From a virus: 64,000 nucleotides of DNA. Location: the IMG/VR virus record IMGVR_UViG_3300022694_000001. One strand, given 5' to 3'. Below the pieces are notes generated by a model. It did no database searches and was not told the origin of the DNA. It saw only the letters and a program-made list of their open reading frames with translations. Of the stretch, positions 5,153 to 60,652 are shown one piece after another. Every line of letters begins with the position of its first letter. The stretch's first letter is position 1. Position numbers and translations under genes: made by a program.

Positions 5153-5548
5153 ATGAAAGCGTTTCCGCGGTCGAACAGGATTTTTCGGCACGCGTTTGCG
5201 TTTGCGTTTGATGATGCGCCTAGCGTCTGGCTGGGGGTTGGTTACACCCTGGCTTCGCACAAGATTTCGTTGAACACCAACGATGCGACAAGTGATAAAA
5301 CGCTGCCGCAGTTGACGGACGCCAAGGCTAACGCAACCACGGGCGACATTCGGACAGTGGCGTTTGCGATAGCGGAAGCGTTGTTTCAGGCGTGGCTGGC
5401 ACAGGGAGCCGGTGGGCAGCCACGAAACATGGTTATTCGCCGGAGCGCGAGCAGCGCAGGCACCAACGACACTGTTACCTACACCTACCAGTTGCAGTTC
5501 ACGCTGGACCCGAGCGGGACGTACACTGTAGATGATGAGCCGGCGTAA
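5153..5548 (+). CDS. Hypothetical protein, possibly structural
   Basis: ATG 20 nt after motif copy 2; C-terminal beta strand TYTYQLQFTLD. Confidence 0.65.
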   Translation: MKAFPRSNRIFRHAFAFAFDDAPSVWLGVGYTLASHKISLNTNDATSDKTLPQLTDAKANATTGDIRTVAFAIAEALFQAWLAQGAGGQPRNMVIRRSASSAGTNDTVTYTYQLQFTLDPSGTYTVDDEPA

Positions 5549-5559
5549 TGGCGGAAGAA

Positions 5560-5582
5560 AACGCCGAACGCCGAACGCTCAA
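5560..5582. repeat. AACGYYS heptamer array
   Basis: aacgccg aacgccg aacgctc aa. Confidence 0.7.
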
Positions 5583-5598
5583 TGTAGAATAACAGAAA

Positions 5599-5694
5599 AT
5601 GACAATAAAAGGGATAGCAATAGCGTTTGGGGTGATTTTGCTCGTCATTTTCTTTCTTTGTTTTCTTTTCCTTTTTTTGCCTAGTGGATTGTGA
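5599..5694 (+). CDS. Small single-TM peptide (31 aa)
   Basis: MTIKGIAIAFGVILLVIFFLCFLFLFLPSGL; below the ORF-track cutoff. Confidence 0.4.
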   Translation: MTIKGIAIAFGVILLVIFFLCFLFLFLPSGL

Positions 5695-5737
5695 ACGCAG
5701 GCAACTGAGACGGTCGCGCTACCTTAAACTTGGCATT

Positions 5738-5754
5738 GACAGCGTTTCGCAGTC
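5738..5754 (+). promoter_or_regulatory. Palindromic operator/promoter motif, copy 3
   Basis: ttGACAGC-gtttc-GCAGTC; TTGACA-17-TAAGCG; ATG at 5772. Confidence 0.75.
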
Positions 5755-42904: not shown

Positions 42905-45900
42905 ATGGCTGATGAGAATGACGAGCAGCAGCCAGAGCCGCCGGTAATCAACCGGGAGATCGGTCAGAATCCCCTAGTTCCGAGCGCGCCGGCAGACGCC
43001 GAAGAGGCCGCGCCGTTATCGTCGTTCATTCCTCCGGATCAACCTGCGCCACGGGTAATCGTGTTACCGCGGCCACGGCGACAAGGACCGTTGTATCCGC
43101 GCGACAGAATCAATCCGAGTTGGCATCCGAGGGATCGGGCGCCGAAGTACGGGCGTGCTGTAGATCAATTTGATGAAGCGGCCATGTACCGCGAGCAGCA
43201 TCCAGTCGAACGGGATCCAGAGACGGGTGCACTGCGACCGATGCGCGCTGATCAATATCGTCCCGGAAAAAACGTCATTAGTTACGACCAGCAGGGGCGC
43301 CCGAAACCCTTCGATATAGAGGACATGTACCGTGAGGAACAGGGGCAACGGACGAAATTAAACCGTGAAGCCGCGCAGACGTTAAAAGAAGCGCATGTTC
43401 AACTCGAGCGAGATCCGGACACGGGGGTAGTTAGCCCGGTACGCGACGATTCCGGCAACATTCAATATCGTCCGGGGAAAGGCGCGGTCAGTTACGACCA
43501 GCAAGGGCGCGCCATTCAAACACAGTACGACACCAGCGGTCCGAAGCAGGTGGAATTGGATAAGGACTCGGAGATTGGGCCAATCGAAGGGCGACCGCCT
43601 AACGAGCTTTACAAGCAGAACAAGTATTCCCCTTTTGAATACGTCGGCACGATTGATGAAGGCCTGAAACATTCGGACAAGAACATTCAGCAGGCTGCAC
43701 AAACGGCAAAATTGAAGCTGGAACACCGATTGCACGCCGCGGTGGCTAACGACCTGGGCCAGACAGTCAGCGAGCAATCGTTAGTGGTCCAGGGAAAGAT
43801 CAGCGATTTCAAGAGTAAGGGGAAATTACTCGGGCAGTTGAGTCAGCAACTCGATAATTTCGACGCTGAACATCCGGGCATTACCGAAACGGAAGGCGGT
43901 TTTCTGGGGATGGGCGCGCGGCCTAGTCAGACGGCGACAACGTTGCAGGCGCAAAAGGCTGATTTGCAAAAGCAGATCGAAGATTTACAAGGGCAAGGCT
44001 ATTCGACGGACCCGAAGGCGGTAACTGAGTTCACAAAAACCGATCGTGAATCGTTGGCGGCAACGCGCGCGGTGCACGGGGAGTGGTCGTCTGGCACACC
44101 GAAGGAACCCGGCGATTTTGACAGGCTGATTGACAGGCGCAAAGCGATCTTGGCCGAGCAAGGCGTTGACGTGGGCGAAGATCCAATTTTGCAATCGCTT
44201 GAGAAACGGCGCGCGGAGCTTGGGGTTGGAGCGCCGACACCGAAAGATCACGCGGCGGAGGATGAACTGCGCAAAGACGCTACGTTTGGGCCGTTACTGC
44301 AGGAGCGCGACCAGTTGCACTCCGCGCATGAGGCTGCCAGCAACGAGTTGCAAGGTATTCAGGACGAATACGACAAAGTGATCGGTCCGGTCCGCGAACG
44401 ATTGCGCGTGGGCCAGGCGCAGATCGCGCCGATACAAGCCGAAGTCGAGGCTTACAGCCACAAACTCGATCAGGTGCTAGGGATGCCGACGCCAGCGGCG
44501 GGCGACGAACAGGCGCTTGCGGCGCGTGAAGCTGAGTGGAGCACTCGAATCTCGCAGTTGACCGATCCGCGACAAAAAGCGCGGGTGCAAACAGTGTTGA
44601 ACGCTCTGGAGCCTGCAAAACAGCAACTCAGGATGGCGCAAGCGCAGTTGCAACCGGTGCAGGATACGCATGACGCGCTGGTAGAAGAGAACCAGCGGAT
44701 GATCGCGGACCGCCATGCGCAATTTGAGAACGAGTTGGGGCCGCAGAGAGAGGATCTGCAGGCGCGAATGGGTGCTGCGCATCAGCAACGGACCGTGACT
44801 GAGGCTGTGCGTAAAAGCGATGTGCTCGCAAACGTGCTTGGGCCGTTAATGGTGAACCCTAACGACCCAGGGTTTACGCCGTCGTTAGTCCAATCGATTC
44901 AAGAAAATTTAGATCGCCGGAAGCAGGAAGCGATCAAGTCTTGGGATTTTGAGCCAAACGATTTCGAGCGGGAATTATTCGGTGCGCCGTTTCGCATGGT
45001 CGGGGAAGGCTTAAAAGGCTTCGCGCATCTCTCTGAAGGTTTGTTAAAGCTGTTCCCGCAGGAAAAGAACGTTTCTGATCACGAGCAACACGCGGTCTTA
45101 ACCCGATGGGTGGCTGACCAACTTCTGAAAGTGCCAGGGGTGCTTTCGACGCCGCAAAGCGAGAAATCGTTAGCCGGCAAGGCTGGTGGATTTATCGGGG
45201 GCGTTGCTGGCGCAGTCGGCGCGGGGTTAATCGACCCGGCGATATTGGTGCCACAGTTTTTCGGTCAAGGTGTCAACGGTCAGATGGAAGCGGCGAAGCA
45301 AGCGGGAGCTGACGACGCGACGGCGCTAAAGGCTGGTGTTCTCGGTGGCACAATCAACGCGCTTCTGGCAATTCCGTTCGAAGGATTCGGTAAGGCGCTC
45401 ACGGAGACGTTTGGCAGCGCGAAACAGAGCGCGATTCAGAAAGCGTTAAAGGAATCATACGAGCGCGGAGGCGCGGAAGCTGTTGCCAATGATTTAACGA
45501 TTCTGCGTAACTCGATGATAAAAACCGCCGGGCGGTCCGCGTTTCAAAAGACTGCCGTGGATGCGTTGCAGCCCATCATTGAAGAAATCACCAAAACACC
45601 GTTGCAACGGGCGGGACAGGTTGGAATCGAAGTGCTAAAAGATAGCGCGCTTTTTGCCGGCGTTCAGGCAGCTCAAAACGCGGTTACAAAGACGTACAAT
45701 CCGGACACCGGGCTTTTCGAGAATGTTCCGACAGCGGCCTTTGAAGGCGGAGTGCTTGGGGCGTTCTTTGGTGGGTTACGGCAGGTTGGCCGGGCGCAAA
45801 AGGCTGGGGCGGCACGTGAAGAAATTGCGACTGGCTTGGCGAAACAGGCGCGTGCTGGCGAAGTGCAGCCGATGGGTGTGGAGAGAGCTTTGCCGGAGAC

Positions 45901-48900
45901 GGGGGTTACGGAGGGGCCGACCGAAACGCATGAACAGGCTTCTCGTAATGCTGGGGTTAGTCCGGTTGAAGGTGTTGATGAAGCGGGCCAAGGGCCAGGA
46001 CCGATCGAACAGGCGCACGGCGAGATAAACAATCTTGTGGTGCCGGATGTGTCGCCGGCTGTGAATACGGCGACGCAACATGCGTTGCGCGGGCTGATCA
46101 AAATTGCCAACGGCGAATCGATGGAAGCGTTGACCACGGCAGAAAAGGCGGCGGTGAACGCAAAGACGACCGATGGATTGCCTCGAGTTGTGATGGTGAA
46201 AAGGGCTGACGGCAAACAACAGCCGGTTATCACGGACGCGACGCTCGAACGGATCCGGCAGATTGCGCCGGTTACTGCACAAGTGATGCCGCAGAGCGAG
46301 GGTGAGCAACGGCAGCGGATACTTAATCCTGTTGAAGAAATAACGCCGGAATCTGGTTCAGTTGAAAAGGGAGAGATTCAACCAAACAAGAAAACTCCTG
46401 AGATTTCTCAACCGAGCTTCGAAGTGGCCATTGAGCGGCCGAGTGGCGAAGTGGAGACGCGGACGGTGCAGGCTGCGAGTGCAGAGGCCGCAAAGGGACA
46501 GGTCGCTGGTTCAATTTCTCCCGGACAGGGGATGGTGCGCGATGTTTCCGAAGTTCCACAGGCGATGTCCGGTTTTGTCCCCTTAGATGAGGGGCAAAAA
46601 ATGGACACGGCTACAGCCTTGTCGGATGAGATGGTGGGCCAGGTGCGGGAGCAGGCTGGCCGCGAGCTCCAACCGGAAGAGGAGCAGGCGGTGCGCGGTA
46701 TCGCGGAACGCGTTACGCCTGCGATTGAGAAGTTTCGAGGGGCGTTCAGTTCGATTCAGGCCACGCTTGAGCCGCGGGGGTCGATGGGTGCGTTCACGAC
46801 TATTCCCGAAGGTAAATTAGTGCTTTCGCTGCCGGACATTGTGCGGCACGCGCAGGAATGGGGCGAGCCGGAAGGTCCGGACCTGGTTGTTGAACAGGAA
46901 GCGATTCATGCGGTCGCGGACCAACTGCATCAGCAGGGCAAGATCGATCCGGAAGGTATTGCGCGCGATATGCCCGCTGAACTGCGGGAGCATGTGGCCG
47001 GCGTTTACAACCCGGACGTTCCGATGGAGGAGCGGAATGATCTCGAGGACGGCCACGAATTTTTGCGCTTACTGGTGCAACACCAGTTGAGAGTGGACGA
47101 AGGCAAAGTGGTCGATGCCGACGGGAAAGTAATCACCGAAAACTTGTCGCCTGGCTTTATCGCACGGATCCGGCAGGCGTTGGTGCGCTTGTTCGAAGTG
47201 TTTCGGGACATGGCGAAACGGCTCGGGGAGATGGGCGCGAAACCGGAGTACGTCGAGCAGGTGCAAAAAGCGCGGGATTTAATCGTTACCCGATTAAGAG
47301 AAGTTGACGCTGGCAGCCGCGGTGCGTATGAGACAACCAATGGCGGTAAGACGGCTCAGGTCAAAGGTAAAGGTGGTAAAGCTCCCGCAGAACGATCTGT
47401 GGAAGGGGAATTACGTGTCGAGCCTAAGCCGACAGCAGGCCAGGGACAAGTTGCGGGTGCTGGTGTTGGTGGAGCAGTTGGACAACCACATGGAGTCATG
47501 TCGGCTGCGACGAAAACTCTTACTGGCCAGGCTGGATCAGGTGCCGGAGCGGAACTGACCTCCAAGGAGATCGCTCAGGCGGCAATCGCGATTGGTGCTC
47601 CTCGGGATAAGATTACAAAACCGTGGTGGGATAAGGTCGGCAATAAGCACGTTCTCTCTCAGGGTGGGCGCTCGGTGAACGTGGCGTATGTTGCCCAGGA
47701 AGCCAGCAAGGGGCGCACGTCGCATGACGCGCTGGGTAATGCGTCGTCCGGTTACGATCTGAGTTTGCAGCCGCGTGACCGGAGCTTGGCGCAGTACCGG
47801 AAGCAATCGCAAAATATCGCGCAGAATTTGGACTTTGCGCAGGCGGCTTTCTTTCCCGAAACGACTACGCCGGCGACGACGGGCGACATCGGCGCGCCAG
47901 TGATGACGCCTACGGGAGACACGCTGATTGGGAACGGACGCGAGATAGGGATTAAAGCTGCGTACGCTGCGAACAGCCCGCAGGCGCGCGCTTACAAGCG
48001 AGATTTTGTGCATAACGCTGCCAGGTTCGGGATTGACCCTGCCGCTGTGATGAAGATGCGGCAGCCGGTGTTGAAACGGGTGATTCTGGATGATTTGCCG
48101 AAGGACGAGCTGATCAGGCTCAGCCAGGAATCCAATGAAGGCGTGGCGATGGGTGTGAACGCGACTGAGATCGCGAATCGCGACGCGACGCGGCTGACTC
48201 CTGAGATACTTTCCGAGTTTGATCCGAATTACGCGCTGGACGCGGCGAAGAATCGCGGGTTTTTGCGGAGTTACCTGCAGAACGTGGTCAGCGGCGCGGG
48301 CGCGAACGAGGCAAATATCAACTGGCCGGACCTTGCGCGGCGGGTGCGCGCTGCGGTGTTCACGTATGCGTATGGCGCGGATGAAGCGGGTCGGGCCGCG
48401 CTCGAGCGGTTACAAGGCGAAGACTCGAGCCGCAAAATCACGGACGGGCTTTTAACGGTGGCGCCGATCGTGGCTCGGATGAAGGCCGATATTGCCAGTG
48501 GCGATTTGTTTCCGCTGGATATTTCTCCGGAAATCGCGCGGGCGGTCCAGGATATTTCGGAGGCGCTTCGGGACAGGCCGAAAGGACAGAGCGCGAGCGT
48601 GGCGTTGGATGGGCTTGTTGCGCAGGGCGAGTTAATTCCGGCAGGCGACGCGCCTGCCCTACAACAATCGGTTCGTGATTTTGTGATTGCGAACCGCGGG
48701 AACCGGGCGGCGATCGAGGAGGCGTTGAGCAATTACGTCGAATCGGTGTATGAGATTGGGAATCCGAAGCAGCCGAACTTGTTTGGTGAACAGGCGGGAG
48801 AAGAATCGGATCGGACGCAACTTTGGAATTTAGCGACCAAGCCAGAAGCGATTGCGCCGAAGACAGAGCAGAGAGAACTTGCTGCGCAAGCTCTCAGAAG

Positions 48901-51900
48901 TCGGATGTCAGAGGACAGAGGGCAGCTTACGCCTCTGGATCACGTGATTCATCGGAAACTACGTGCCGGAAAGAGCGTGGAAACGGTCGCGAAAGAACAC
49001 GGCATGAAAGTGGAGCATGTCGAGCGGACTTATGACCGGGTGAATCGATCCCAGGAAATTCGAACTCTCCTATCACAACAAACATTTCGATCTGAAACCG
49101 ATGCTTTTGCTGCGGCAGAGAAGGCTAAACCGAGTTTCGATCAGACATTGGAAGACGTAGCTAAGGCTACCGGGGCGCGCGCAATGACTACGCCAATCAA
49201 GAGCAGGGAGCGCGCTGCGGCGAAGGTGGCGGCAGATTACAGGGGCGATTGGAGCAAGATCAAAGATTTGGTTCGCGGAACGATTGTGGTGCGCGATCTC
49301 GACCAGGCGAAGGCAGTCGTCGGAGCGTTGGCGCAACGGTTCGGAGTGGAACCCAAGCGTGACTTCAATCAGCCGTTACAGAGCGGCTACAGGGACGCTT
49401 TGTTTAATCCGATTATCAATGGCTACGTCGCCGAGATTCAGGTTCATATCGAACCGATCATTCACGCGAAAAGCACGTCGCACACATTTTACAAAAGACA
49501 TCAAGAAATTCAGCGCGCTGCGCAGGTAGAAAATCGTGCGTTAAACAGCCAGGAACTTCGGACTATCGAGCGTCTTAATATGGCGCAGCAGAGAATTTAC
49601 GCGGCGGCTTTCGGCAACATCTCGGGAGAGATCAGTTCGACGGCATCTGAAGGCTTGCAAGGAAAGGCACCGACCGATTTGATTTCTTCTGGCGTTATTG
49701 GTCGCGGAGAATCGCCGTCGAAAGCCCAAGCGGTCCCGTCCTTATCTACCACGATTCCGAAGCCGGCGGGGGCTTCCATGAAGGATTTAGCGTCGGGGAA
49801 GGCGGCGATTGCTTCTTCGTCTGTCATTCCACCTTCTCTTACACCGACTGGTGGTGTTCGTCATCAAGAAGTTTTGCTGGCGCAGAAACTCAAAGACACT
49901 GGGACGCTAGACCTATTCGGGGATTACGTGGGCGCGTTGCCGGCGGCGGCGAAAGCGAGTAAACCGGCGCTCAAACGCGAGGTTGAAAAGGATGTGCCGA
50001 GCCTTGCGGAGAGCGGGGCGGCGCTGAGCAATCTTTTTGAGTTGGCGCAGCCGGGGAAGACCTATGAGGTTTCTAACCCAGTCCAATTCCCGAAAGTTCT
50101 TTCGGCTACGAGATACAGTGACTCGACTGTTGCGAAGGTGGCACATAACTATGTTACCCACCAAACGGAATACGGATACCGTGTCGAGCTAGAGGATGGG
50201 CGTCAGTGGATCGGTTCGGCCAAGAATCGAGACGCAGCCATCACGAAAGCGCAATACGAGTTTCGAAAAACGTTGACGGAAGCGCCTGCGGCGGGTATTC
50301 CACAGGCAAATGAAGACGCAGTTCGAAAAACCGCCAGAGCTAACCGAAAAGCGAAGGTTGGCACTGAGACAGCAACCGGAGTGGATGACTTGTTTTCGCT
50401 CCTGGCTGAACAGCACGGATCCGAGCGAGATACGGGATTGGCTGGGGGGGTCGTACAAGACGCTATTGGAGCACCTGGACGAACTGACGTGGCGGGTGCT
50501 GGCGATCTACCTGGACACGAAACAGACGCCGGACGACCTGGCGGAAGCGTTACGGCAGGAGATACCGATGGAGGACGAGGACTCGCAGAACCCACTGACA
50601 CCGGAGGAAACGCAGCGCCTAGTGAAACTGGCGGAAAGCGCACACTTCCCAAGTTAGTTAGTCGGCCCGCGGACCCGAACGCTCGGAATTACGTCATTCC
50701 GCGCGACACAAAAGAGATTGCTCCACGCGGAGCGATGGCCAAACTGCGCGCCAATCAGGACGCGATCAAGTTACTGAAACAGATCGAGACCGAACAGCGT
50801 CTCGCGACTCCTGAAGAAAAATCGCAACTGGTCAAGTATTCGGGTTGGGGCGCGCTCTCCCAGGCGTTCGATGACGCAAAGGCGGATCGAATTGCCGCTG
50901 GTGAGATCTCGGAACTGAATACCGAGCTGCAACGTTATCGTGGCTACCAGGAGAGGAATCGCGAGTCCAGTTATTACAGCGGCGAGATTGGGCGACTAGA
51001 AAAAGACATCCGCAGCCTTGAAAGCTGGCAAAGCAAGTGGGGCGACATTCACTCCGAACTAAAGTCGATGCTCACCCCGGACGAATACAAGCGCGCGATG
51101 CGAAGCACGATCAACGCGCATTATACCTCTCCAGAGATGATCAAGTCCATGTGGGACATTGCCGCGCATCTCGGATTCAAGGGCGGTAACGTGCTCGAGC
51201 CCGGCGCCGGTATCGGTCATTTCTTTGGGCTTATGCCGGAAGAGCTTTTATCCCGGTCCAGTCTTCATGCAGTAGAGCTCGACGACATTAGCGGCCGGTT
51301 GACCAAGATGCTTTATCCGGAGGCCGACGTGCAAATCACTGGCTTCCAAAACGCGGACATCGCCGATGGGTCAGTGGACCTGTCGATTTCAAATGTGCCT
51401 TTCGCGAATGTGCCGGTCACGGACAAGGCGATGGAACTCTCCGGCGGGCCTACGGATAACCTGCACGATTATTTCCTGGCCAACATGATCAAGAAGTTGC
51501 GCCCCGGCGGATTAAACATCGCTATTACAAGCGCGTTCACGATGGACAAGGGCGCGAGCGAAAACCGAAAATGGATGGCAGACCGCGCGGACCTGGTAGC
51601 GGCGTTCCGGTTGCCGAACAACGCTTTCAAGGCCAATGCAGGCACGGATGTGGTGACTGATATTTTGGTGTTTCGCAAAAAAGATGGACAGATTTTTCCG
51701 CACGCGAAGGATTGGACGATGCTGGATAACGCTACGACACAAAAAGGCGATCCGATTCGGGTAAACCAATATTTCGCGCAGCATCCACAGGATATTCTTG
51801 GGTTCCTGGCAGACGACGGCGAGATGTTCGCGCACGGCGCCGGCGAAAAAGAGATGACGGTGCACGCGGACCCAAACCGGCCGCCTGCGGTGGCGCTGGA

Positions 51901-54900
51901 GCAAGCCATTGACAATTTACCGAAGGACATCGCAGGCGACGGGAACGCGGCCGAAGTGCGCAGCAACGATCCGACCATCTCGAAGATGGGGAATATCGTG
52001 GAGAAAGACGGCAAGTATTTCTTCCACGGGCAAGCGGAGCCGGACGAGGCGTTGAATGATCCTAAGAACGCGAAGCGAGTTCGAAAGTTTATTGAGACGC
52101 GCGACGTTTTGAATGAGCAGTACCGGCTGGAACTGGATCCGGAAGCGACCGACGAAGATGTTGAAGCTAATCGTCGGATGTTGAACGCGCGTTACGATTC
52201 GTTCACCGCCGATTTCAGTAATTTTCATACTCCGAAAAACAAAGGGCTATTCATTGACGATCCGGATTGGTTCCGGTTGGCCGGCGCGGAGACACCGATT
52301 CAGGTTTCAGGCGGCGTTAAAGAGATGTTGTCGATTTTGGACGGCAAAAAGAGCCGACAATTTACAAAGGCCGACGTGTTCAAGAAACGCGTGCTTACGC
52401 CGATCATTGAACCCACGAAAGCTGACAGTCTAGAAGACGCTTTCGGAATGAGTCTCGGTTGGCGCGGTCGCGTGGACCTTGGCTACATTTCGGATTTAAC
52501 CGGCCAAAGCCGGGAACAAGTGGAACAAGGATTGGTCGCATCCGGCATCGTGGTGCGCGACCCAGAAAACGGGCAACTTCAATCTCGCGAGCAATACCTG
52601 GCTGGCAATGTGCGTAAGAAACTCGACATCGCTAAAGCCGCAGGCCCGGATTACGAGCGCAACGCTCAAATGCTAGAGGCGGTTCAACCGGAGGACGTGC
52701 CAATCGACGAAATCCGGTTCAAGATCGGCGCGACATGGGTGCCAGTGGACGCTTACCAGCAATTCCTGAGCACGATCGGGATTGAGTTACCCATTGAATA
52801 CCACACAGCTCTCGCCGGCGGGCGCGACTTTTACACCGTAGGCTTGCGTGATTACCGTGCGACCGGTGTAGCGCACAAAGATTTCAGGACAGACCAGGTG
52901 AGTGTGCCTGAGTTGATGGACTCGATGCTGAACATGAAGCGCATCGAGGTTCTCCACACCGACAAGGATCGAAAGGGTGATACCGATGAAGGCGCAACTA
53001 TGGCGGCTAGGGATGCGGGTAAACGGTTGAGTGACGCTTTTGTGGCTTACGCGAAAGGCAATGCGGAGCTTGGTCCGCGGCTCGCGCAAATCTATAACCG
53101 CGAGGCGAACGGGTTCGCGCAACGGACGTATGACGGACAATTCCTTACTCTCCCGTGGAAAAATAAGGATTTCGATCTTTTCCCCGACAAAAAGAACGTC
53201 ATTTGGCGCGCGATACAAGATCGATATGCACTAATTGCGTGGGGCGTTGGCGGCGGCAAAACAGTGATTGCGGCCGGGATCGCGCTTGAATTGCGTCGCC
53301 TCAAACTAGCGTTAAAGCCGATGGTGGTGGTGCACAACTCCACGCTGGAGCAGTACGCCGACGAGATTGCGGTGATTGCGCCGAGCGCCCGGGTATTGAT
53401 CGGACGCAAAGACGAACTCTCTGGCGCGAAACGGAAAGAGTTCCTGATGCGAATTGCTGCCGGCGACTGGGACGCGGTAGTTATCGCGCATAGCACCTTC
53501 GGATTGATCGAAGACGACCCAGTGTTTCAGACAAAACACATGGAATCGCTCGTGGACGAAGCGATGCAGAGTTTAACGGATCGCGGATACAACTCAGTCT
53601 CGGATGCCAAGAAATCGCGCGAACCCAGTGTGAAGCAACTAGTCAAGATGATCGAGCAGCTTGAGACGAAGATTCAGGCACTTTCCGAGCGAAAAACCGA
53701 CACGGGCCTCTTGAATTTCCAACAACTCGGCGTGGACGCGCTGATCGTGGATGAAGTGCACAAGTTTAAGAAAATGCCGTTCTCGACCAAGCTGGACGTA
53801 AAAGGCATCGACAGCGGCATGAGCCAGCGCGGTTACGCCATGTTGCTCCGAGCCAGGTCAATTCAGGAGCGTAACGGCGGCAAAAACGTGTTCTCGATGA
53901 CTGGCACGCCAGTCACGAATACGCTGGGGGAAATCTGGAACCAGGTAAGACTGGTGGCGCCGCATCTCCTGAAAGAATACGGCGTTGAAACGTTCGATCA
54001 ATTCGTCAGCAAGTTTGCCGAGGTCGAGACGATCAGCGAAGCCGGCCCGAGCGGTGAACGCAAGATGGTGGAGCGCCTATCGAAGATCGTAAACCTGCCT
54101 GAGTGGTCCACATTTTTCCGGCAAGCTGCCGACGTGAAACTGGGCGACGACATGGTGGTAAAGAATCGTCCGGGCATCAAAGGAGGCGGCGGACAACTGA
54201 TCGCGCTGGAGCGCACACCTGGCACGGCCGCGTGGGTTAATTATATCCGCAACGTGCTCGAAGGGTTCAAAGAGCTAAAATACGACGATTTTAAGGATAA
54301 TAAGAGCCTGTTTGCTGTGCCGGTGCAGGCTTACATCGCGAGCCGAGCCGCAGCGATCGACATTCGGTTGATCGAACCGCGCGCCAAAGATGAGTCGGGC
54401 AGTAAGGCTAACAGGGCGGTTCGCGGCATAATCAAACTCTATCGAGAGACCACGCCATACAACGGGACACAGGTGATCTTCTCCGACTCGTTCAACCAAG
54501 TCAAAACCAGTTTGTTTGATGCCGTGGTGCCACGGTCGAATCTCAACCTAGAGCTCGACCCCAGTAAACCGCCAGGAACGACATTTAATCTTTACGAAGA
54601 CATCAAGGCGAAACTGATAGCTCTCGGCGTGCCGGCGGAAGAAATCGCGATTGTTGCCGACAAAGAATTTGATAATGCCAAGCGAAAAAAATCACTCTTC
54701 GAGGATGTGAATAAGGGCAAGGTTCGCATCGTGATGGGCAGCACGGAGAAACTCGGCACCGGCGTCAACATGCAGGAGCGGATGCTTGCGGCGTGGAACC
54801 TGGACGTTCCGTGGACAGCCGCAGGGTTAGAGCAACGCGACGGGCGCGTGTATCGGCAAGGCAATGTGCACGCGGAGATGGGCGTACCCGTGGAATTGAC

Positions 54901-57900
54901 GCGGTTGGGAATGAAAGACACGCTGGATGAATCGCTCTGGAAAATTATTGAGCGCAAACTGCGGATCCAGAAACAGGCGTTAAGCGGTAAGATCGTGGGG
55001 CGCGAACTCGAAGAGATGAGCGATGTCCTGAGTCTCGCGGAGCAAGCCTCGATTTTAAGCGGCCCATACGGAGCCGAGAGTTTCGAGCTGGATAGCCGGA
55101 TTCGGGAATTAGAAGGGAGCCGGGCCGGGCACGACCGTCAAGTTGCAAACCGAGATTCGGAGATCAGGTCGTCGAAAGAATGGCTGCGCCAGCAGGAAGC
55201 CGAAGAGGCGCGGTCTGAGCCGGCGATGCAGTTAATGGCAAAACTCGGTGAGCGCGTCTCGAAAGACGGTGCTCAGATCACGGTAGATGGCGATTCGTTT
55301 GAGACTAAGACGGCGATGGTGGAGCGTGTGAACGCGTTATTGGACGCGGAGAAAAACAAACCGACCAACGAAAAAAGCAAAGCCATTTTCTCAGTGGCGG
55401 TCAACGGCGTTCCGGTGCGGTTGGATGTTACTCCTACAGAATATGACGAATGGGATGTTGCGGGTGTAGAAAGCAAGAGGGTAACGAAACCGTCCGCGCA
55501 GTTCGATCTGATGGCGACGGATTCCAATAGCCCGAAATTCGGGCGCGTAACCAGCGCGGCGACGCTGTTGGCGCGCCTCGAGGAATTAAGCGGGACGGTG
55601 GACGGAATCAGGGAAGGCCGAAAGAATAACACGGCGCGATTACGGCAACTGGCCGAGATGCAGCAATTGGGTAAATGGCCGTTTAAAGAGGAATACCAGA
55701 GAGCACTTGCGCGACAGAAAGAGCTTTTGAAGCTGATGCGCGGGGAAGAACTCAAAAAAACAGGAGAAGGAGAAGAAACGCCGAACGCTCAACGCCCAAC
55801 GCCCAACGCTCAACCGGCAGAATTGCGAGCACAGGCGACGGCGGATGCTGCCAAGACGCCGGCGGAACGGTTTAAGGATGCGTGGCCGTTGGCTGAATCG
55901 ATTGCACGCTCGTATTCGAATATCCCCGGCGTGACGCTGAAGGACGTGGAGCAACATGCCCGGATTGCTCTGGTGCGCGCGGCGCGTGAGTTTGATCCTG
56001 CTCGCGGGGCCGCAATGGACACGTTTGCGCGCAAAGTGGTCGGGAATGAGTTGCGCAGTCTTTACGGCAGGCAGATGCGAACGGCGGGGCGGGAATCGAC
56101 GGTGCTGGATGTTCCCGTCTCCGCCGAAGGCTCTGCCGCGGTTTCACAAAAAGAAAACATCGTCGGGCCGAGCGATGTTCGGGCGGACGTGGCGCGGACT
56201 GAGGCGACACAAATGCTTTCGACCGCGATTGACGAGTTGCCGGACAAAATGCGAGACGTGATGAATGGAATCTTGTCCGGGAAAGAGACGCTGGGCGAGA
56301 TCGGGGAACGGCTTGGCGGATTACCGAAACAAGCCGTAGGCCGGCTGGCGAGTGCGGCTATGCGCCGGTTGAAAGGGAAACTTGGTGAGAAAGGCGTTTC
56401 TGGTGTGACGGATCTGTTGAGTCAGGAAACGACCACGGATAACACGGATACGGAGAAAAAGACGTTATCGGATTTCTTGGCGAAGCATGATGCGTCGAAG
56501 GGCACCGTTCCCGCTAAAAAGATAGCTGAGCCGACTAGGAGGAATGTTAAGTTAGCTGAGAAGCTCGGAAATCAATCAACGAGAGACTCGTCTGTTGTTC
56601 CTAATTTTCGGCCTGTGGAGCAGGAAATCGCGATTGGAAGGGCTTATGGCTACAGCGATAACGACATCGCAGCATACTTGCAGCGCAATTACGTGGATCG
56701 AATACCCGAACGTGTTGCGCAAACGTCTGTAGGCGTTCGACCACCGCAGGAGCTAATTGACAAGTATCCAGAGTTAAAACACGCCATTAAAGTTTCCGAG
56801 AAATATGGGCATTTAGTGAAACTCAGCGAGCAACTGGAACTACTGAGTCAGGTCGTCGAGGATGAAGTGAAGCTGTCTGAATCGGCTGATCCGGTGGCGT
56901 CGTTCATGGAGCTTATGCGGGATGATCCGGTTGAGAAGTTGCGCGGTATAAAAGGCATTGGGCGGCCTGATCTGGCGCTGGGCGCGGAGCCTGCCATGCG
57001 GCCGGTGCACGAGTTTCATACTGCCACGGCTACGCCGCAAAAACTGGATGATTGGGACAAACAAGGCGAAGCGATTTTGCGCAGCCGCGGCGACAAATTG
57101 CCAGCGGATGTTACTAAACGTTGGCTGGATGGCTCAGTGCTCGAGCCCGCGGAAGTGCGCGCGACACAGCAATATCTCATCGAAAAACAGGGGCAACCGA
57201 AGACGCCAGAGGAACAACGCGGGTATGACGCGTTGGCGTACGCTTATACCAAGATCGGGGAAGCGACCGCACGGGCGTTGTCTGCGCGCCGTGATCCGTT
57301 CAAAACGCCGGAGGAGAGGAACCGTGAATTTATCGGGAAAGCTCTTGTGCATTTGTCGGCTACTGAAGATCGCGAACTGGACGCGATTGCCGATCACAAG
57401 GAGAAAGTGGCGCGCTTGGAGCAGATCGTTCAGGGGCGACGCACTCAGATCAACGCGGCGCTGGAGCATGTCGCCGGAAAGGGCGTGACGATTGACGATA
57501 TTTTGTCCGGCGGCACGGAATTGCGGTTAAAAGGCGCCAAAATGATCGAGAATCAGATGGCGGGTTACGGCGAATCGGAAAAGAAAGTGATCAAGCTGGC
57601 GCAGACCGGGGCGCGCAGCGCTGCGGAGATTGCGAAAGCGACAGGGCTCAGCGTCAAACAGGTCAACGACATCAACGACCAGTTCGTATCCGATCTGGAA
57701 ACGAAATTGATGGCTAAGACTCGGGCCGGGGCGACGCTTGAGAATTTGGATGCGCAGCAGATTGCACTTTTGGCGCAGGAGACGGAACGGCGGCCAGGGG
57801 CCTCCGCTACAGTATCCGAAGACGTTGCTCGCGCTGAGGCGCGAAAAATGATCAAGGCGATGGGGTTTGTGGCGAGCAAGGATTTGGGCACGATGAAAGT

Positions 57901-60097
57901 GGTTAGGCGGAAGCGATCGAAATTGTTTATTCCTCCTTCGCCAAGACCTGCGGCCGACACGGCCGCCCCTACACCTGGTGAGTTGCCTACGGGACAAGAG
58001 ACGCAGGCTCCGATGATGTTTGGCGGTGAGCGCAGTCCGGTGGCGCCGCGCGAAGGTGAGTTGCCGCGTCCGGCAGGACAGCAAGCGCCTTACACCGGAC
58101 GCGTGCTGGGGCAGATCGGGTTGCCGCTTTATCAGGAAATGATGATTCGTAAAGGAGCGGACATGAGTGAGCCGACTGACGTGGCGCGGCTTGGGAACGT
58201 GATTCACGCGGCAACGAGCGGGAACGCGTTCGACATGGTTTATGAAGCGTGGATTAACAACATTCTTTCGGGGCCGGCTACGCACATGGCGAACATTACC
58301 GGCAACGCGGTCTCTACGGCGTGGGATTTTAGTTTACAACGCGGTTTGGAGTCGTTGGTGAACCTGGCTTATCGCGACGCGGATTCGGCGCAGCTCGGGG
58401 AGTTTAAGCATATCGTGAACGGCATTGTGCCGGGGTTGCGTCGCGGGTTGTCGATCGCGGTCAAGGCGTGGGGCGCAGAAGCCGATTTCTTCCGGAACGA
58501 CGTGCTCAATGAGCAGGTGGAAATGTTCCAGGACTTCGAGAAAGGATCAGGCGGCGCTCTTGGTCCTGCTATTCCCGGCCGGACCGGACGCGTGATCAGG
58601 ATGCCGGGACGCGCGCTGATGTTCATGGACGCGGCGTTCAAGGGGTTAATCGGGCAAATGGAAGCAGGCGCGGTCGCGTATCGGATCGCGAAGCGCGAAG
58701 GGTTGACCGGCGACGCGATGGCCACGCGTATGAACGAACTGGTCGCCACACCGAACAGCGAAGCGTGGCAGCGCGCAGTGGATAAAGCTGTAAACCTCAC
58801 GTTCCAAGATCAGATGCGAACCAAAGAAGAGGGCGGCAACCCGTTTGAGAACGCCGTTGCGCGGTTTAACCAGATGCGGACCGGCAGCCATTTGCTGGGG
58901 TTCTTTTTCCCGTTTATCCGGACGCCATACAACATTTTCAAGATGGGCCTGCGCAAAACGCCATTGGGCAGCGCGAACATGGCCTGGCGCTTTTCGAAAG
59001 CGGGTTTTTACCGGTTCAAGGATGGCAAGCCGATGTTCGAAAGCTACGATAAAGGCGAGCAGGTGAGGCATTTGGCGGAGCAATTGATCGCATGGGCGAC
59101 GTTCGCTGCGCTCTGGGCGGCGACGACCGGCGATGATGACGATGACAAAAAAGCGTTGCTCTTTACCGGGTCCACGCCGGTAACGGAAGTAAGGCGCAGT
59201 GAACGCGAGTTGAGGACGCGGTTGCACGGCGGGCAGTACCAGATTCGGGTAGGCGGCCGCAACGGTGTTTACATCAATTACGGGCGTTATGAGCCGTTCG
59301 CGACGGTGATCGGGACTGTGGTGGACGCGATTACGAACCTCAAAAAGATCAAGCGCGGCCAGACGCTCGGTGAAAGTCTGGACGCGATGTACGGTTATTT
59401 TCTGGCACAGGCGAAATCGAAAACGTTTTTACAGGGGTTTGCCGAGATTGCGGACTCGCTCGAGAGCGGCGGTGGCGTTAGGGGTGGCATCACTGAGGCG
59501 GGCAAAAAGATGTTGTTAAGCGCGCTAGTGCCGAATCTCGTCAGGCAACCGTTACGCAACCTCGATGAATGGGTGCGCGACACGAAAGGCGCTGCACCCA
59601 TTTACCAGATGCTTCCCGCGGGTTCGTTAGCGGAAAGGAAAGCTGATCTGTGGGGGCGCGACGTGCAAAAGAGCGGAAACATCTTCAGCAGGTTATTCCT
59701 GGCGACCGGGACAAAGGTTGAGCCGGACGCGCAAAAGGTAGATTTGCTGTTGCAGAATTGGGTTCATCAAAACCCGGGTGGGGCGCGCGAATTGAGCGTG
59801 CCGTCGAGCGCGATCAACAGGACGTACAAGGACGCGATCGGTAAAGAAGCGCAAATGACACCCGAGCAGTTTCACCGGTTTACGGTGGACTCCGGGAAAC
59901 TGGCGCTAACTCGGTTACGGGGGAAATTCACGCAACGTCAGATCGATCATCCGAAGGCGGAAGATGTGAAGATGATTCGGGGCGCGCTGGAAGATGCGCG
60001 GCGTGAAGTGAAAGAGCGGATGTTTCCGGCGGGACCACGCGGCTTCGGGCATCCACGGCAGGCGATTAACTTACGCGAAGTGATGTGGGCCGCATGA
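42905..60097 (+). CDS. 5730-aa polyvalent virion protein: ejection-like N-terminus, degenerate zincin, ddrB-type ParB, HTH, RelA/SpoT-like, DarB-like N6-MTase + SNF2 helicase, sigma-70-like, HTH, internal-virion C-terminus
   Basis: EQEAIHAV; YDLSLQPRDR...LIGNGR; KSRERAAAK/DLVRG/GYRD/EIQ; VLEPGAGIGHF, SNVPF; GVGGGKT, DEVHKFK, STEKLGTGVNMQ, EQRDGRVYRQGN; FDPARG and region-4 HTH; AWINNILSGPATH. Confidence 0.9.
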   Translation: MADENDEQQPEPPVINREIGQNPLVPSAPADAEEAAPLSSFIPPDQPAPRVIVLPRPRRQGPLYPRDRINPSWHPRDRAPKYGRAVDQFDEAAMYREQHPVERDPETGALRPMRADQYRPGKNVISYDQQGRPKPFDIEDMYREEQGQRTKLNREAAQTLKEAHVQLERDPDTGVVSPVRDDSGNIQYRPGKGAVSYDQQGRAIQTQYDTSGPKQVELDKDSEIGPIEGRPPNELYKQNKYSPFEYVGTIDEGLKHSDKNIQQAAQTAKLKLEHRLHAAVANDLGQTVSEQSLVVQGKISDFKSKGKLLGQLSQQLDNFDAEHPGITETEGGFLGMGARPSQTATTLQAQKADLQKQIEDLQGQGYSTDPKAVTEFTKTDRESLAATRAVHGEWSSGTPKEPGDFDRLIDRRKAILAEQGVDVGEDPILQSLEKRRAELGVGAPTPKDHAAEDELRKDATFGPLLQERDQLHSAHEAASNELQGIQDEYDKVIGPVRERLRVGQAQIAPIQAEVEAYSHKLDQVLGMPTPAAGDEQALAAREAEWSTRISQLTDPRQKARVQTVLNALEPAKQQLRMAQAQLQPVQDTHDALVEENQRMIADRHAQFENELGPQREDLQARMGAAHQQRTVTEAVRKSDVLANVLGPLMVNPNDPGFTPSLVQSIQENLDRRKQEAIKSWDFEPNDFERELFGAPFRMVGEGLKGFAHLSEGLLKLFPQEKNVSDHEQHAVLTRWVADQLLKVPGVLSTPQSEKSLAGKAGGFIGGVAGAVGAGLIDPAILVPQFFGQGVNGQMEAAKQAGADDATALKAGVLGGTINALLAIPFEGFGKALTETFGSAKQSAIQKALKESYERGGAEAVANDLTILRNSMIKTAGRSAFQKTAVDALQPIIEEITKTPLQRAGQVGIEVLKDSALFAGVQAAQNAVTKTYNPDTGLFENVPTAAFEGGVLGAFFGGLRQVGRAQKAGAAREEIATGLAKQARAGEVQPMGVERALPETGVTEGPTETHEQASRNAGVSPVEGVDEAGQGPGPIEQAHGEINNLVVPDVSPAVNTATQHALRGLIKIANGESMEALTTAEKAAVNAKTTDGLPRVVMVKRADGKQQPVITDATLERIRQIAPVTAQVMPQSEGEQRQRILNPVEEITPESGSVEKGEIQPNKKTPEISQPSFEVAIERPSGEVETRTVQAASAEAAKGQVAGSISPGQGMVRDVSEVPQAMSGFVPLDEGQKMDTATALSDEMVGQVREQAGRELQPEEEQAVRGIAERVTPAIEKFRGAFSSIQATLEPRGSMGAFTTIPEGKLVLSLPDIVRHAQEWGEPEGPDLVVEQEAIHAVADQLHQQGKIDPEGIARDMPAELREHVAGVYNPDVPMEERNDLEDGHEFLRLLVQHQLRVDEGKVVDADGKVITENLSPGFIARIRQALVRLFEVFRDMAKRLGEMGAKPEYVEQVQKARDLIVTRLREVDAGSRGAYETTNGGKTAQVKGKGGKAPAERSVEGELRVEPKPTAGQGQVAGAGVGGAVGQPHGVMSAATKTLTGQAGSGAGAELTSKEIAQAAIAIGAPRDKITKPWWDKVGNKHVLSQGGRSVNVAYVAQEASKGRTSHDALGNASSGYDLSLQPRDRSLAQYRKQSQNIAQNLDFAQAAFFPETTTPATTGDIGAPVMTPTGDTLIGNGREIGIKAAYAANSPQARAYKRDFVHNAARFGIDPAAVMKMRQPVLKRVILDDLPKDELIRLSQESNEGVAMGVNATEIANRDATRLTPEILSEFDPNYALDAAKNRGFLRSYLQNVVSGAGANEANINWPDLARRVRAAVFTYAYGADEAGRAALERLQGEDSSRKITDGLLTVAPIVARMKADIASGDLFPLDISPEIARAVQDISEALRDRPKGQSASVALDGLVAQGELIPAGDAPALQQSVRDFVIANRGNRAAIEEALSNYVESVYEIGNPKQPNLFGEQAGEESDRTQLWNLATKPEAIAPKTEQRELAAQALRSRMSEDRGQLTPLDHVIHRKLRAGKSVETVAKEHGMKVEHVERTYDRVNRSQEIRTLLSQQTFRSETDAFAAAEKAKPSFDQTLEDVAKATGARAMTTPIKSRERAAAKVAADYRGDWSKIKDLVRGTIVVRDLDQAKAVVGALAQRFGVEPKRDFNQPLQSGYRDALFNPIINGYVAEIQVHIEPIIHAKSTSHTFYKRHQEIQRAAQVENRALNSQELRTIERLNMAQQRIYAAAFGNISGEISSTASEGLQGKAPTDLISSGVIGRGESPSKAQAVPSLSTTIPKPAGASMKDLASGKAAIASSSVIPPSLTPTGGVRHQEVLLAQKLKDTGTLDLFGDYVGALPAAAKASKPALKREVEKDVPSLAESGAALSNLFELAQPGKTYEVSNPVQFPKVLSATRYSDSTVAKVAHNYVTHQTEYGYRVELEDGRQWIGSAKNRDAAITKAQYEFRKTLTEAPAAGIPQANEDAVRKTARANRKAKVGTETATGVDDLFSLLAEQHGSERDTGLAGGVVQDAIGAPGRTDVAGAGDLPGHETDAGRPGGSVTAGDTDGGRGLAEPTDTGGNAAPSETGGKRTLPKLVSRPADPNARNYVIPRDTKEIAPRGAMAKLRANQDAIKLLKQIETEQRLATPEEKSQLVKYSGWGALSQAFDDAKADRIAAGEISELNTELQRYRGYQERNRESSYYSGEIGRLEKDIRSLESWQSKWGDIHSELKSMLTPDEYKRAMRSTINAHYTSPEMIKSMWDIAAHLGFKGGNVLEPGAGIGHFFGLMPEELLSRSSLHAVELDDISGRLTKMLYPEADVQITGFQNADIADGSVDLSISNVPFANVPVTDKAMELSGGPTDNLHDYFLANMIKKLRPGGLNIAITSAFTMDKGASENRKWMADRADLVAAFRLPNNAFKANAGTDVVTDILVFRKKDGQIFPHAKDWTMLDNATTQKGDPIRVNQYFAQHPQDILGFLADDGEMFAHGAGEKEMTVHADPNRPPAVALEQAIDNLPKDIAGDGNAAEVRSNDPTISKMGNIVEKDGKYFFHGQAEPDEALNDPKNAKRVRKFIETRDVLNEQYRLELDPEATDEDVEANRRMLNARYDSFTADFSNFHTPKNKGLFIDDPDWFRLAGAETPIQVSGGVKEMLSILDGKKSRQFTKADVFKKRVLTPIIEPTKADSLEDAFGMSLGWRGRVDLGYISDLTGQSREQVEQGLVASGIVVRDPENGQLQSREQYLAGNVRKKLDIAKAAGPDYERNAQMLEAVQPEDVPIDEIRFKIGATWVPVDAYQQFLSTIGIELPIEYHTALAGGRDFYTVGLRDYRATGVAHKDFRTDQVSVPELMDSMLNMKRIEVLHTDKDRKGDTDEGATMAARDAGKRLSDAFVAYAKGNAELGPRLAQIYNREANGFAQRTYDGQFLTLPWKNKDFDLFPDKKNVIWRAIQDRYALIAWGVGGGKTVIAAGIALELRRLKLALKPMVVVHNSTLEQYADEIAVIAPSARVLIGRKDELSGAKRKEFLMRIAAGDWDAVVIAHSTFGLIEDDPVFQTKHMESLVDEAMQSLTDRGYNSVSDAKKSREPSVKQLVKMIEQLETKIQALSERKTDTGLLNFQQLGVDALIVDEVHKFKKMPFSTKLDVKGIDSGMSQRGYAMLLRARSIQERNGGKNVFSMTGTPVTNTLGEIWNQVRLVAPHLLKEYGVETFDQFVSKFAEVETISEAGPSGERKMVERLSKIVNLPEWSTFFRQAADVKLGDDMVVKNRPGIKGGGGQLIALERTPGTAAWVNYIRNVLEGFKELKYDDFKDNKSLFAVPVQAYIASRAAAIDIRLIEPRAKDESGSKANRAVRGIIKLYRETTPYNGTQVIFSDSFNQVKTSLFDAVVPRSNLNLELDPSKPPGTTFNLYEDIKAKLIALGVPAEEIAIVADKEFDNAKRKKSLFEDVNKGKVRIVMGSTEKLGTGVNMQERMLAAWNLDVPWTAAGLEQRDGRVYRQGNVHAEMGVPVELTRLGMKDTLDESLWKIIERKLRIQKQALSGKIVGRELEEMSDVLSLAEQASILSGPYGAESFELDSRIRELEGSRAGHDRQVANRDSEIRSSKEWLRQQEAEEARSEPAMQLMAKLGERVSKDGAQITVDGDSFETKTAMVERVNALLDAEKNKPTNEKSKAIFSVAVNGVPVRLDVTPTEYDEWDVAGVESKRVTKPSAQFDLMATDSNSPKFGRVTSAATLLARLEELSGTVDGIREGRKNNTARLRQLAEMQQLGKWPFKEEYQRALARQKELLKLMRGEELKKTGEGEETPNAQRPTPNAQPAELRAQATADAAKTPAERFKDAWPLAESIARSYSNIPGVTLKDVEQHARIALVRAAREFDPARGAAMDTFARKVVGNELRSLYGRQMRTAGRESTVLDVPVSAEGSAAVSQKENIVGPSDVRADVARTEATQMLSTAIDELPDKMRDVMNGILSGKETLGEIGERLGGLPKQAVGRLASAAMRRLKGKLGEKGVSGVTDLLSQETTTDNTDTEKKTLSDFLAKHDASKGTVPAKKIAEPTRRNVKLAEKLGNQSTRDSSVVPNFRPVEQEIAIGRAYGYSDNDIAAYLQRNYVDRIPERVAQTSVGVRPPQELIDKYPELKHAIKVSEKYGHLVKLSEQLELLSQVVEDEVKLSESADPVASFMELMRDDPVEKLRGIKGIGRPDLALGAEPAMRPVHEFHTATATPQKLDDWDKQGEAILRSRGDKLPADVTKRWLDGSVLEPAEVRATQQYLIEKQGQPKTPEEQRGYDALAYAYTKIGEATARALSARRDPFKTPEERNREFIGKALVHLSATEDRELDAIADHKEKVARLEQIVQGRRTQINAALEHVAGKGVTIDDILSGGTELRLKGAKMIENQMAGYGESEKKVIKLAQTGARSAAEIAKATGLSVKQVNDINDQFVSDLETKLMAKTRAGATLENLDAQQIALLAQETERRPGASATVSEDVARAEARKMIKAMGFVASKDLGTMKVVRRKRSKLFIPPSPRPAADTAAPTPGELPTGQETQAPMMFGGERSPVAPREGELPRPAGQQAPYTGRVLGQIGLPLYQEMMIRKGADMSEPTDVARLGNVIHAATSGNAFDMVYEAWINNILSGPATHMANITGNAVSTAWDFSLQRGLESLVNLAYRDADSAQLGEFKHIVNGIVPGLRRGLSIAVKAWGAEADFFRNDVLNEQVEMFQDFEKGSGGALGPAIPGRTGRVIRMPGRALMFMDAAFKGLIGQMEAGAVAYRIAKREGLTGDAMATRMNELVATPNSEAWQRAVDKAVNLTFQDQMRTKEEGGNPFENAVARFNQMRTGSHLLGFFFPFIRTPYNIFKMGLRKTPLGSANMAWRFSKAGFYRFKDGKPMFESYDKGEQVRHLAEQLIAWATFAALWAATTGDDDDDKKALLFTGSTPVTEVRRSERELRTRLHGGQYQIRVGGRNGVYINYGRYEPFATVIGTVVDAITNLKKIKRGQTLGESLDAMYGYFLAQAKSKTFLQGFAEIADSLESGGGVRGGITEAGKKMLLSALVPNLVRQPLRNLDEWVRDTKGAAPIYQMLPAGSLAERKADLWGRDVQKSGNIFSRLFLATGTKVEPDAQKVDLLLQNWVHQNPGGARELSVPSSAINRTYKDAIGKEAQMTPEQFHRFTVDSGKLALTRLRGKFTQRQIDHPKAEDVKMIRGALEDARREVKERMFPAGPRGFGHPRQAINLREVMWAA
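47328..47558 (+). CDS. Nested +1-frame ORF inside the giant gene (76 aa)
   Basis: MRQPMAVRRLRSKVKVVKLPQNDLWKG...KLRVLVLVEQLDNHMESCRLRRKLLLARLD; third positions GC-rich in this frame, A/T-rich in the main frame. Confidence 0.5.
   Translation: MRQPMAVRRLRSKVKVVKLPQNDLWKGNYVSSLSRQQARDKLRVLVLVEQLDNHMESCRLRRKLLLARLDQVPERN
49597..49827 (-). CDS. Nested antisense gene behind the RelA/SpoT-like domain (76 aa), candidate immunity protein
   Basis: MTDEEAIAAFPDAKSFMEAPAGFGIVVDKDGTAWAFDGDSPRPITPEEIK...; purine-rich aagagaaggtgga before ATG; sense frame here is S/A/G/P-rich. Confidence 0.6.
   Translation of the reverse strand: MTDEEAIAAFPDAKSFMEAPAGFGIVVDKDGTAWAFDGDSPRPITPEEIKSVGAFPCKPSDAVELISPEMLPKAAA
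50310..50657 (+). CDS. Nested +1-frame ORF inside the giant gene (115 aa, or 90 aa from ATG 50385)
   Basis: ...IRDWLGGSYKTLLEHLDELTWRVLAIYLDTKQTPDDLAEALRQEIPMEDEDSQNPLTPEETQRLVKLAES; codons ctg gac gaa ctg acg tgg cgg gtg ctg gcg atc tac. Confidence 0.6.
   Translation: MKTQFEKPPELTEKRRLALRQQPEWMTCFRSWLNSTDPSEIRDWLGGSYKTLLEHLDELTWRVLAIYLDTKQTPDDLAEALRQEIPMEDEDSQNPLTPEETQRLVKLAESAHFPS
55777..55813. repeat. AACGYYS heptamer array inside the giant ORF
   Basis: aacgccg aacgctc aacgccc aacgccc aacgctc aa (TPNAQRPTPNAQ). Confidence 0.75.
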
Positions 60098-60576: not shown

Positions 60577-60652
60577 AGCTGGGTGGAGAAGTGGCAAGGC
60601 GTGAGCCTCATAAACTCAAAACCGCGGGTTCGATTCCCGCCCCTGCAATCCA
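60577..60652 (+). tRNA. Degenerate tRNA-Met(CAT)-like RNA
   Basis: T-arm gcggg-TTCGATT-cccgc is perfect; anticodon loop ctCATaa with 4/5 stem pairs; acceptor 5/7 pairs; D-stem unpaired; ends ...gcaaTCCA. Confidence 0.5.

Follow-up and report, generated by a model that had tools for sequence, protein, structure and literature searches.

Nested genes in phages and their hosts

Small phage genes can be embedded out of frame within a larger gene on the same strand, as are Rz1 inside Rz in lambda and E inside D in phiX174. The gene described here shares with these pairs a layout in which a small gene lies wholly inside a larger one, on the same strand and in the +1 frame, with its own start, which is putative here. 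It differs from them in that the host gene is polyvalent and 17 kb long, the overlap falls in a dispensable linker, the inner frame is the more constrained of the two, and free-standing copies exist. An outer-membrane spanin of the Rz1 type was rejected because lipoprotein or membrane features were not found and the host gene encodes a polyvalent protein. A second precedent comes from methylase genes of mycobacteriophages, where the ShiLan insertion forms an out-of-frame gene that has a start and a stop of its own and that the host frame reads through as a loop; the product of the inserted gene is a homing HNH endonuclease (PMC11855218). The out-of-frame layout within a host frame is the same, but the product here is a zipper protein of 61 to 76 aa with no enzyme motif, inherited with a clade, and a hidden homing endonuclease was rejected because neither an HNH nor another nuclease domain was found in the inner frame. 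The zipper gene is thus a case of the general class of nested out-of-frame genes but belongs to neither the Rz1 nor the ShiLan family.

The host gene belongs to the DdrB-like-ParB polyvalent proteins of Iyer et al. 2017 (PMC5512222), a paper that makes no mention of overlapping or nested genes and uses "nested" only for a hairpin. Our literature search turned up no report of genes nested within those for polyvalent proteins. In phage P1 (NC_005856), iddB is annotated as a gene nested antisense within the ParB region of the ddrB-ParB gene; unlike iddB, the gene studied here is on the same strand as its host, lies upstream of ParB, and is unrelated in sequence.

A codon anomaly marks a +1-frame ORF in the linker of a giant phage gene

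The window (the whole stretch of 64,000 nucleotides that was analyzed) is phage DNA encoding a major head protein, a tail spike, a DnaB-like helicase, and a terminase. Directly behind the terminase gene lies a giant ORF whose product carries ddrB-ParB, SNF2/helicase, and sigma-70 domains (Pfam) plus a zincin-like domain. Several conflict domains, including ddrB-ParB and SNF2, are thus joined in one chain, as in polyvalent proteins. The features referred to below are as follows.

42905 to 60097, + strand: host gene, phage polyvalent protein of 5730 aa (ORF list and domain matches)
46688 to 47314, + strand: upstream zincin-like domain of the host protein, with QEAIH at 46895-46909
47328 to 47558, + strand: nested +1-frame ORF, 76 aa from ATG, stop TGA at 47556-47558 (ORF list, codon anomaly, relatives)
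47373 to 47375, + strand: GTG, alternative start giving a 61-aa product (register of the SD-led ATGs in L005, L006, and L008)
47382 to 47393, + strand: N-terminal motif F/L-P-Q-N in the unstructured part, conserved in relatives
47427 to 47543, + strand: helix cap S-x-x-E and leucine-zipper helix, with heptad V44, L51, C58 (L in relatives), L65, V72
47529 to 47558, + strand: near-invariant C-terminal tail and stop; R68, L69, Q71, and N76 invariant among relatives
47666 to 48082, + strand: ddrB-like ParB domain of the host protein (PF18763; Pfam, aa 1588-1726, E = 8e-15)
50310 to 50657, + strand: second +1-frame nested ORF, of a different family, before the methyltransferase-helicase (codon anomaly)

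The nested ORF lies wholly inside the 5730-aa ORF, in the linker between the zincin-like domain and ParB, and its stop was measured 108 nt before the Pfam ddrB-ParB match, in agreement with the "about 100 nt" of an earlier note on this DNA. The HExxH motif of the zincin-like domain is intact in 8 of its 15 aligned relatives, and in the window the first His is replaced (QEAIH). Fold searches with this domain gave no clear match. No sigma-70-type promoter or terminator was found at 46800-47800. A tRNA-Met gene is located shortly 3' of the giant, at 60577-60648.

Synonymous GC3 was then scored in 77-codon windows along the whole giant gene, with the host protein held fixed. The lowest window of the entire 17-kb gene was 47318-47548 (z = -5.45), which matches the ORF within ten bases. 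The earlier note had seen the same signature at the 50310 ORF, and the second-lowest value was indeed found there (z = -5.19). Six other long +1 stretches of the giant had z values of -2.3 to +2.4, with no such dip. According to the coding score, both frames were alike at the 47328 ORF, whereas the main frame was far better in the other long +1 stretches. The +1 frame is GC3-rich as claimed, with a GC content by codon position of 0.61/0.34/0.75 versus 0.63/0.43/0.63 for the host gene. The main frame, described before as G/A/V-rich, is enriched in G (23%) and A (16%) but only slightly in V (9%). Openness alone is weak evidence, because the ORF is only the eighth-longest open +1 stretch of the giant and linkers commonly leave this frame open (P = 0.015 to 0.03 in the linker of the window and 0.27 to 0.92 in relatives). 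Taken with the conservation described below, 47328-47558 is almost certainly a protein-coding gene, over which the main frame is only a tolerated linker whose G/A-richness is the shadow of the small gene.

Three DNA read runs covered the nested stretch without variants. One sediment metatranscriptome had contigs at 47149-47407 and 50317-50467, over both +1 ORFs; we gave them no weight because they show neither strand nor level and DNA was possibly present.

The inner frame is conserved in one clade of giants

Searching with the ParB region as the query retrieved 25 other giants, and the DNA of 17 loci was examined. Ten relatives and the window formed one supported ParB clade (support, 98), all 11 members of which carry a +1 ORF of one family. 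With L030, which lies outside this clade, the family was found within a giant in 12 loci, and all 12 are open in both frames. The earlier note had stated that +1-frame stops in close relatives would speak against a gene, and none was present in any clade member. The family was absent from six more distant loci (L011 to L013, L015, L033, and L034). Its members share an F-P-Q-N motif, an arm of variable length, a helix cap followed by a long helix, and a tail whose last residue is Asn; the copy of the window is among the most divergent members. In every complete giant gene tested, the nested ORF was among the strongest codon anomalies.

The last 18 codons, which are gapless and anchored at the stop, could be compared without alignment. 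Identity was 60% for the +1 frame versus 31% for the main frame, and the best-conserved base was the main-frame wobble position (0.71 versus 0.43 in a ParB control). The stop falls at the same codon in all relatives with TAA, TAG, and TGA all used, and an invariant Arg is encoded by five different codons. The pN/pS ratio was 0.70 to 0.77 in the +1 frame and 1.07 to 1.24 in the main frame with either frame as the alignment guide; these values are saturated and indicate direction, not rate. The inner frame is thus the one under purifying selection. The antisense and +2 frames were rejected as coding frames because they contain stops in several loci. In the main frame of the linker, an R-G-P-P motif was seen in L002 to L009, L012 to L015, and L030, and it has been lost from the window and L010; being kept even in L012, L013, and L015, which have no nested gene, it is perhaps an older signal belonging to the giant.

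The start varies more than the rest of the gene. The ATG hidden in the Y-E codons of the main frame is present at 47328, as noted before, but it is not kept among relatives. A clear SD with an ATG was found in L005, L006, L008, and L014, and an SD with a GTG was found in L002. In L005, L006, and L008, the ATG with its good SD stands three residues before the F-P-Q motif. GTG 47373 is in that register and is perhaps the true start in the window. The SD strength was -5.2 kcal/mol for GTG 47373, -4.9 kcal/mol for ATG 47328, and -2.7 kcal/mol for ATG 47340, with a median of -3.3 kcal/mol for the genes of the window. In the window, L009, and L010, the SD is weak and the start is nonconserved. A +1-frame stop immediately precedes the start in L004, L005, and L014.

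The product is predicted to be a leucine zipper

AlphaFold2 predicted the protein of the window as a single helix (residues 35 to 69) behind an unstructured arm. The stretch quoted in the earlier note as helical forms this one helix, with a pLDDT of 87 to 98. Positions 44, 51, 58, 65, and 72 are hydrophobic in 91 to 100% of 35 members. Among 61 sequences, the spacing between two invariant arginines of the helix is only ever 20, 27, or 34, and the arm is free in length, from 10 to 22 residues with ten different lengths. Indels in steps of seven point to a coiled-coil register in the +1 product, because the main frame would tolerate any whole number of codons. A hydrophobic heptad on one long helix, with its register kept through indels, is what is expected of a leucine zipper or coiled coil. 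A bZIP transcription factor, in which a basic DNA-reading helix with an N-x7-R/K signature would precede the zipper, was rejected because the residues ahead of the helix are unstructured, rich in proline, and of variable number, and no bZIP Pfam match was obtained. No family member has a hydrophobic N terminus.

Single-sequence searches with the 76-aa protein gave no match in 1.84 billion representatives, nor was one found in the ESM Atlas, Pfam, PHROGs, or PDB sequences, and a search by the shape of the helix returned only generic helices (TM, 0.5 to 0.6). A predicted complex between the small protein and the region of the zincin-like domain plus ParB scored 0.00 in both runs, which counts neither way.

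Neither neighboring module needs the nested gene

The earlier note had tied the nested gene to ParB in particular and suggested that each enzymatic module carries its own partner. The tie to ParB did not hold. L030 keeps the gene and has an upstream domain from inside the clade, together with a distant ParB (53 bits versus more than 600) preceded by a +1 ORF of its own, and in six loci a ParB of the same family occurs without the nested gene. The replacement in L030 leaves no reason to single out ParB, although it is one event and possibly reflects plain linkage. In quick trees, the presence of the gene required one change on the upstream-domain tree (support, 86), from which L011 and L013 were left out because they lack the domain, and two on the ParB tree. 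By this sequence comparison, the nested gene follows the upstream zincin-like domain no less closely than it follows ParB. Four loci have the same upstream domain without the nested gene, so that, given the six ParB loci without it, neither module needs it. The family was confined to one fixed junction in one giant clade and never occurred elsewhere in the loci searched.

A partner at every module was not borne out either: in the giant of the window, z < -3.5 is reached by only two +1 ORFs, and none is at the sigma module. What remains of this idea is that +1 genes occur in several linkers (before methyltransferase, helicase, kinase, LPD, and strawberry-notch modules), though by no means every module has one. 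Acidic helical +1 genes of 100 to 110 aa precede methyltransferase/strawberry-notch modules in L010 (9410-9712), L033 (8248-8577), and L014 (9440-9739). Another shared +1 family, basic and of about 55 aa, was seen in L007 (6388-6564) and L030 (7503-7670), in giants that are otherwise different. In L002 (4762-4956) and L010 (5822-6043), a second +1 ORF has its ATG right after the stop of the zipper family, like a nested two-gene operon. The same linker houses unrelated +1 ORFs in two loci where the family is absent, L033 (about 5480-5640, short and Cys-rich) and L034 (about 5520-5740, z = -6.7).

Within the window, the third-strongest codon anomaly, at 49597-49827 on the minus strand, is an antisense ORF behind a RelA/SpoT-like domain; it is conserved, with an antisense homologue in L014 (E = 8e-21). 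Weaker anomalies at 48881-49111 and 56513-56743 (z = -3.3 and -3.2) have no protein-like +1 ORF.

Free-standing copies occur outside giants

The search that found free relatives used an 11-row family profile. It matched 50 clusters of separately called genes of 55 to 125 aa, one of them named from a Verrucomicrobia MAG. In L016, L019, and L041 to L048, which are Verrucomicrobiota-type contigs, the giant's frame has two stops and the nested frame is whole. Free copies start with ATG, and their pN/pS between lineages was 0.19 to 0.30 over the last 48 codons. They are rare, being present in 2 of 401 genomes of the order, with 2 intact and 1 broken in 355 genomes of the family, and one close pair (9 replacement and 2 silent changes) lacks purifying selection; some may therefore be drifting prophage debris. 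One identical free protein was present in at least four gene contexts. A tree of the small proteins gave three label changes, and the sequences are too short to place the free copies. No longer fused form of the zipper protein was found, which is a weak test. L031 was rejected as a family member because it is a chance pattern match in an unrelated gene.

The 9.5-kb contig L027 keeps the nested gene and, 3' of it, about 110 nt of the giant's frame, but no giant. This remnant argues that the copy came out of a giant. L027 is a satellite or a decayed prophage, a compact element with primase, DUF3987, and small and large terminase genes (31% identity to the terminase of the window).

The copy in L016 is surrounded by TIR, PLD, and DUF4062 genes. 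In genome G401 (L037 and L039), the copy lies within an island of AbiEii-like, NERD, and DUF3800 genes; in L037 it is tail to tail with an intact tyrosine recombinase (PF00589, E = 4e-44), one base apart, and 770 nt from a free homologue (L037:351-686, E = 8e-9) of the +1 gene before the methyltransferase in L010. The order of these two formerly nested genes is opposite to that in phage, and a third small ORF of the island is fused to the zipper family in P0032. We do not call the 50310 ORF of the window a homologue of L037:351-686, because the match spans only 20 residues (E = 0.002), with no profile match. Besides the intact recombinase in L037, a decayed one accompanies the copies in L019 to L026; none is present in L016, L027, or L041 to L048. 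The association comes from two genomes. Next to the free copy in L041, a 47-bp inverted repeat with a 93-nt spacer (1084-1270) ends 17 nt before the ATG, and homology between contigs stops at this repeat (-57). It is a possible recombination site or invertible promoter.

In Bacteroidales, the rAID arrays consist of genes co-directional behind a tyrosine recombinase that are proven T6SS immunity genes (bioRxiv 10.1101/471110). The loci of L037 and L019 to L026 resemble rAID-1 orphan-immunity arrays in having small captured genes beside a tyrosine recombinase on a host chromosome. They differ in that the gene is convergent with the recombinase and the cluster is short, and an immunity role is only a proposal here; two or more genes co-directional downstream of the recombinase, which define a rAID array, were not found.

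What the small protein might do

We infer that the gene is likely translated from its own start on the mRNA of the giant, giving a protein of 61 to 76 aa with a loose N-terminal arm, a 35-residue zipper that probably forms a parallel dimer, and a fixed C-terminal tail that would serve for binding. As to its function, our leading proposal, held tentatively and at a little under even chances, is that the small protein serves as a stoichiometric guard for part of the giant. Such a guard would be made from the same message as the giant and would bind one of its modules, the upstream zincin-like domain or its helices being at least as likely a target as ParB. In the producing cell or lysogen, the guard would keep the bound module silent or in solution, and the giant would be packaged and injected without it. 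Nesting would couple guard and giant through module swaps, and hosts with a free copy might be partly protected when a related phage injects its giant. This role is suggested by the free copies, which a pure packaging helper leaves unexplained, by their defense-island contexts, and by the neighboring antisense nested gene.

An independent accessory function is a close rival, though on balance we consider it somewhat unlikely. The target of the zipper, in the host or the phage, would then have nothing to do with the giant; the zipper might act, for instance, as a dominant-negative coiled-coil decoy, with the linker as its shelter. The unrelated +1 ORFs in the same linker of L033 and L034, the second +1 ORFs of L002, L010, and L030, and the survival of the gene after ParB replacement (L030) and after loss of the whole giant (L016, L019, L027, L037, and L041 to L048) all fit such a gene; its restriction to one junction of one giant clade does not, nor do free copies that are rare and sit in variable islands. 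A role in virion assembly, as a chaperone or adaptor loading the giant into the head, is less probable still. The small helpers beside DarB/DdrB in P1 (Ulx, Hdf, and DdrA) offer a precedent, being head proteins that aid loading (PMC9024508, table), the giant lies just behind terminase, and L027, which has terminase, keeps the gene. Yet the small protein has no likeness to the P1 proteins, and chromosomal copies far from virion genes are kept at a pN/pS of 0.19 to 0.30. A more specific form of the partner idea in the earlier note, a cognate antitoxin of the ParB module, appears improbable: the gene is carried just upstream of ParB in all 11 loci of the well-supported clade (98), but it is kept in L030, where a separate +1 ORF stands before the distant ParB, is missing from six loci with the same ParB family, and occurs in free copies without ParB, so that strict co-occurrence does not hold.

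Two explanations would do away with a separate gene product. Ribosomal frameshifting into the +1 frame, yielding a shortened giant with a zipper tail, would suit the weak SD and nonconserved start of the window, L009, and L010. It is very improbable given the strong SD-led ATGs in four relatives, the stops directly before the start in three, and the ATG starts of free copies; moreover, no shared slippery site was seen and the search for longer fused forms, a weak test, found none. We give even less credence to a shadow frame of a low-complexity linker or a conserved DNA or RNA element. Frequent openness of the +1 frame in linkers (P = 0.27 to 0.92 in relatives) and the lack of a single-sequence match among 1.84 billion representatives would be expected of such a frame, but the use of as many as five codons for invariant residues, the three kinds of stop found at a single codon, indels of whole heptads only, copies kept after the main frame broke, and stops in the antisense and +2 frames would not.

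Significance for polyvalent proteins and their hosts

In all eight giants with gene calls on record, the nested gene was not called. Gene finders miss nested genes while the giant is intact, and the protein enters databases only from loci with a broken giant. Descriptions of polyvalent proteins have so far included no cognate control factor, and a concealed set of small partners would account for the ability of a phage to make several dangerous enzymes in one chain. The guard proposal could be extended, as a speculation that we rate as rather unlikely, to linker-hidden genes of virion-injected polyvalent proteins in general: these would be antidotes, which Verrucomicrobiota hosts would gather next to tyrosine recombinases and so become immune to the effectors that phages inject, in the manner of orphan-immunity arrays but directed at phages. 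The free copies, one of which lies beside a second formerly nested gene, suggest reuse by hosts, and such reuse, if true, would represent a new source of anti-phage genes.
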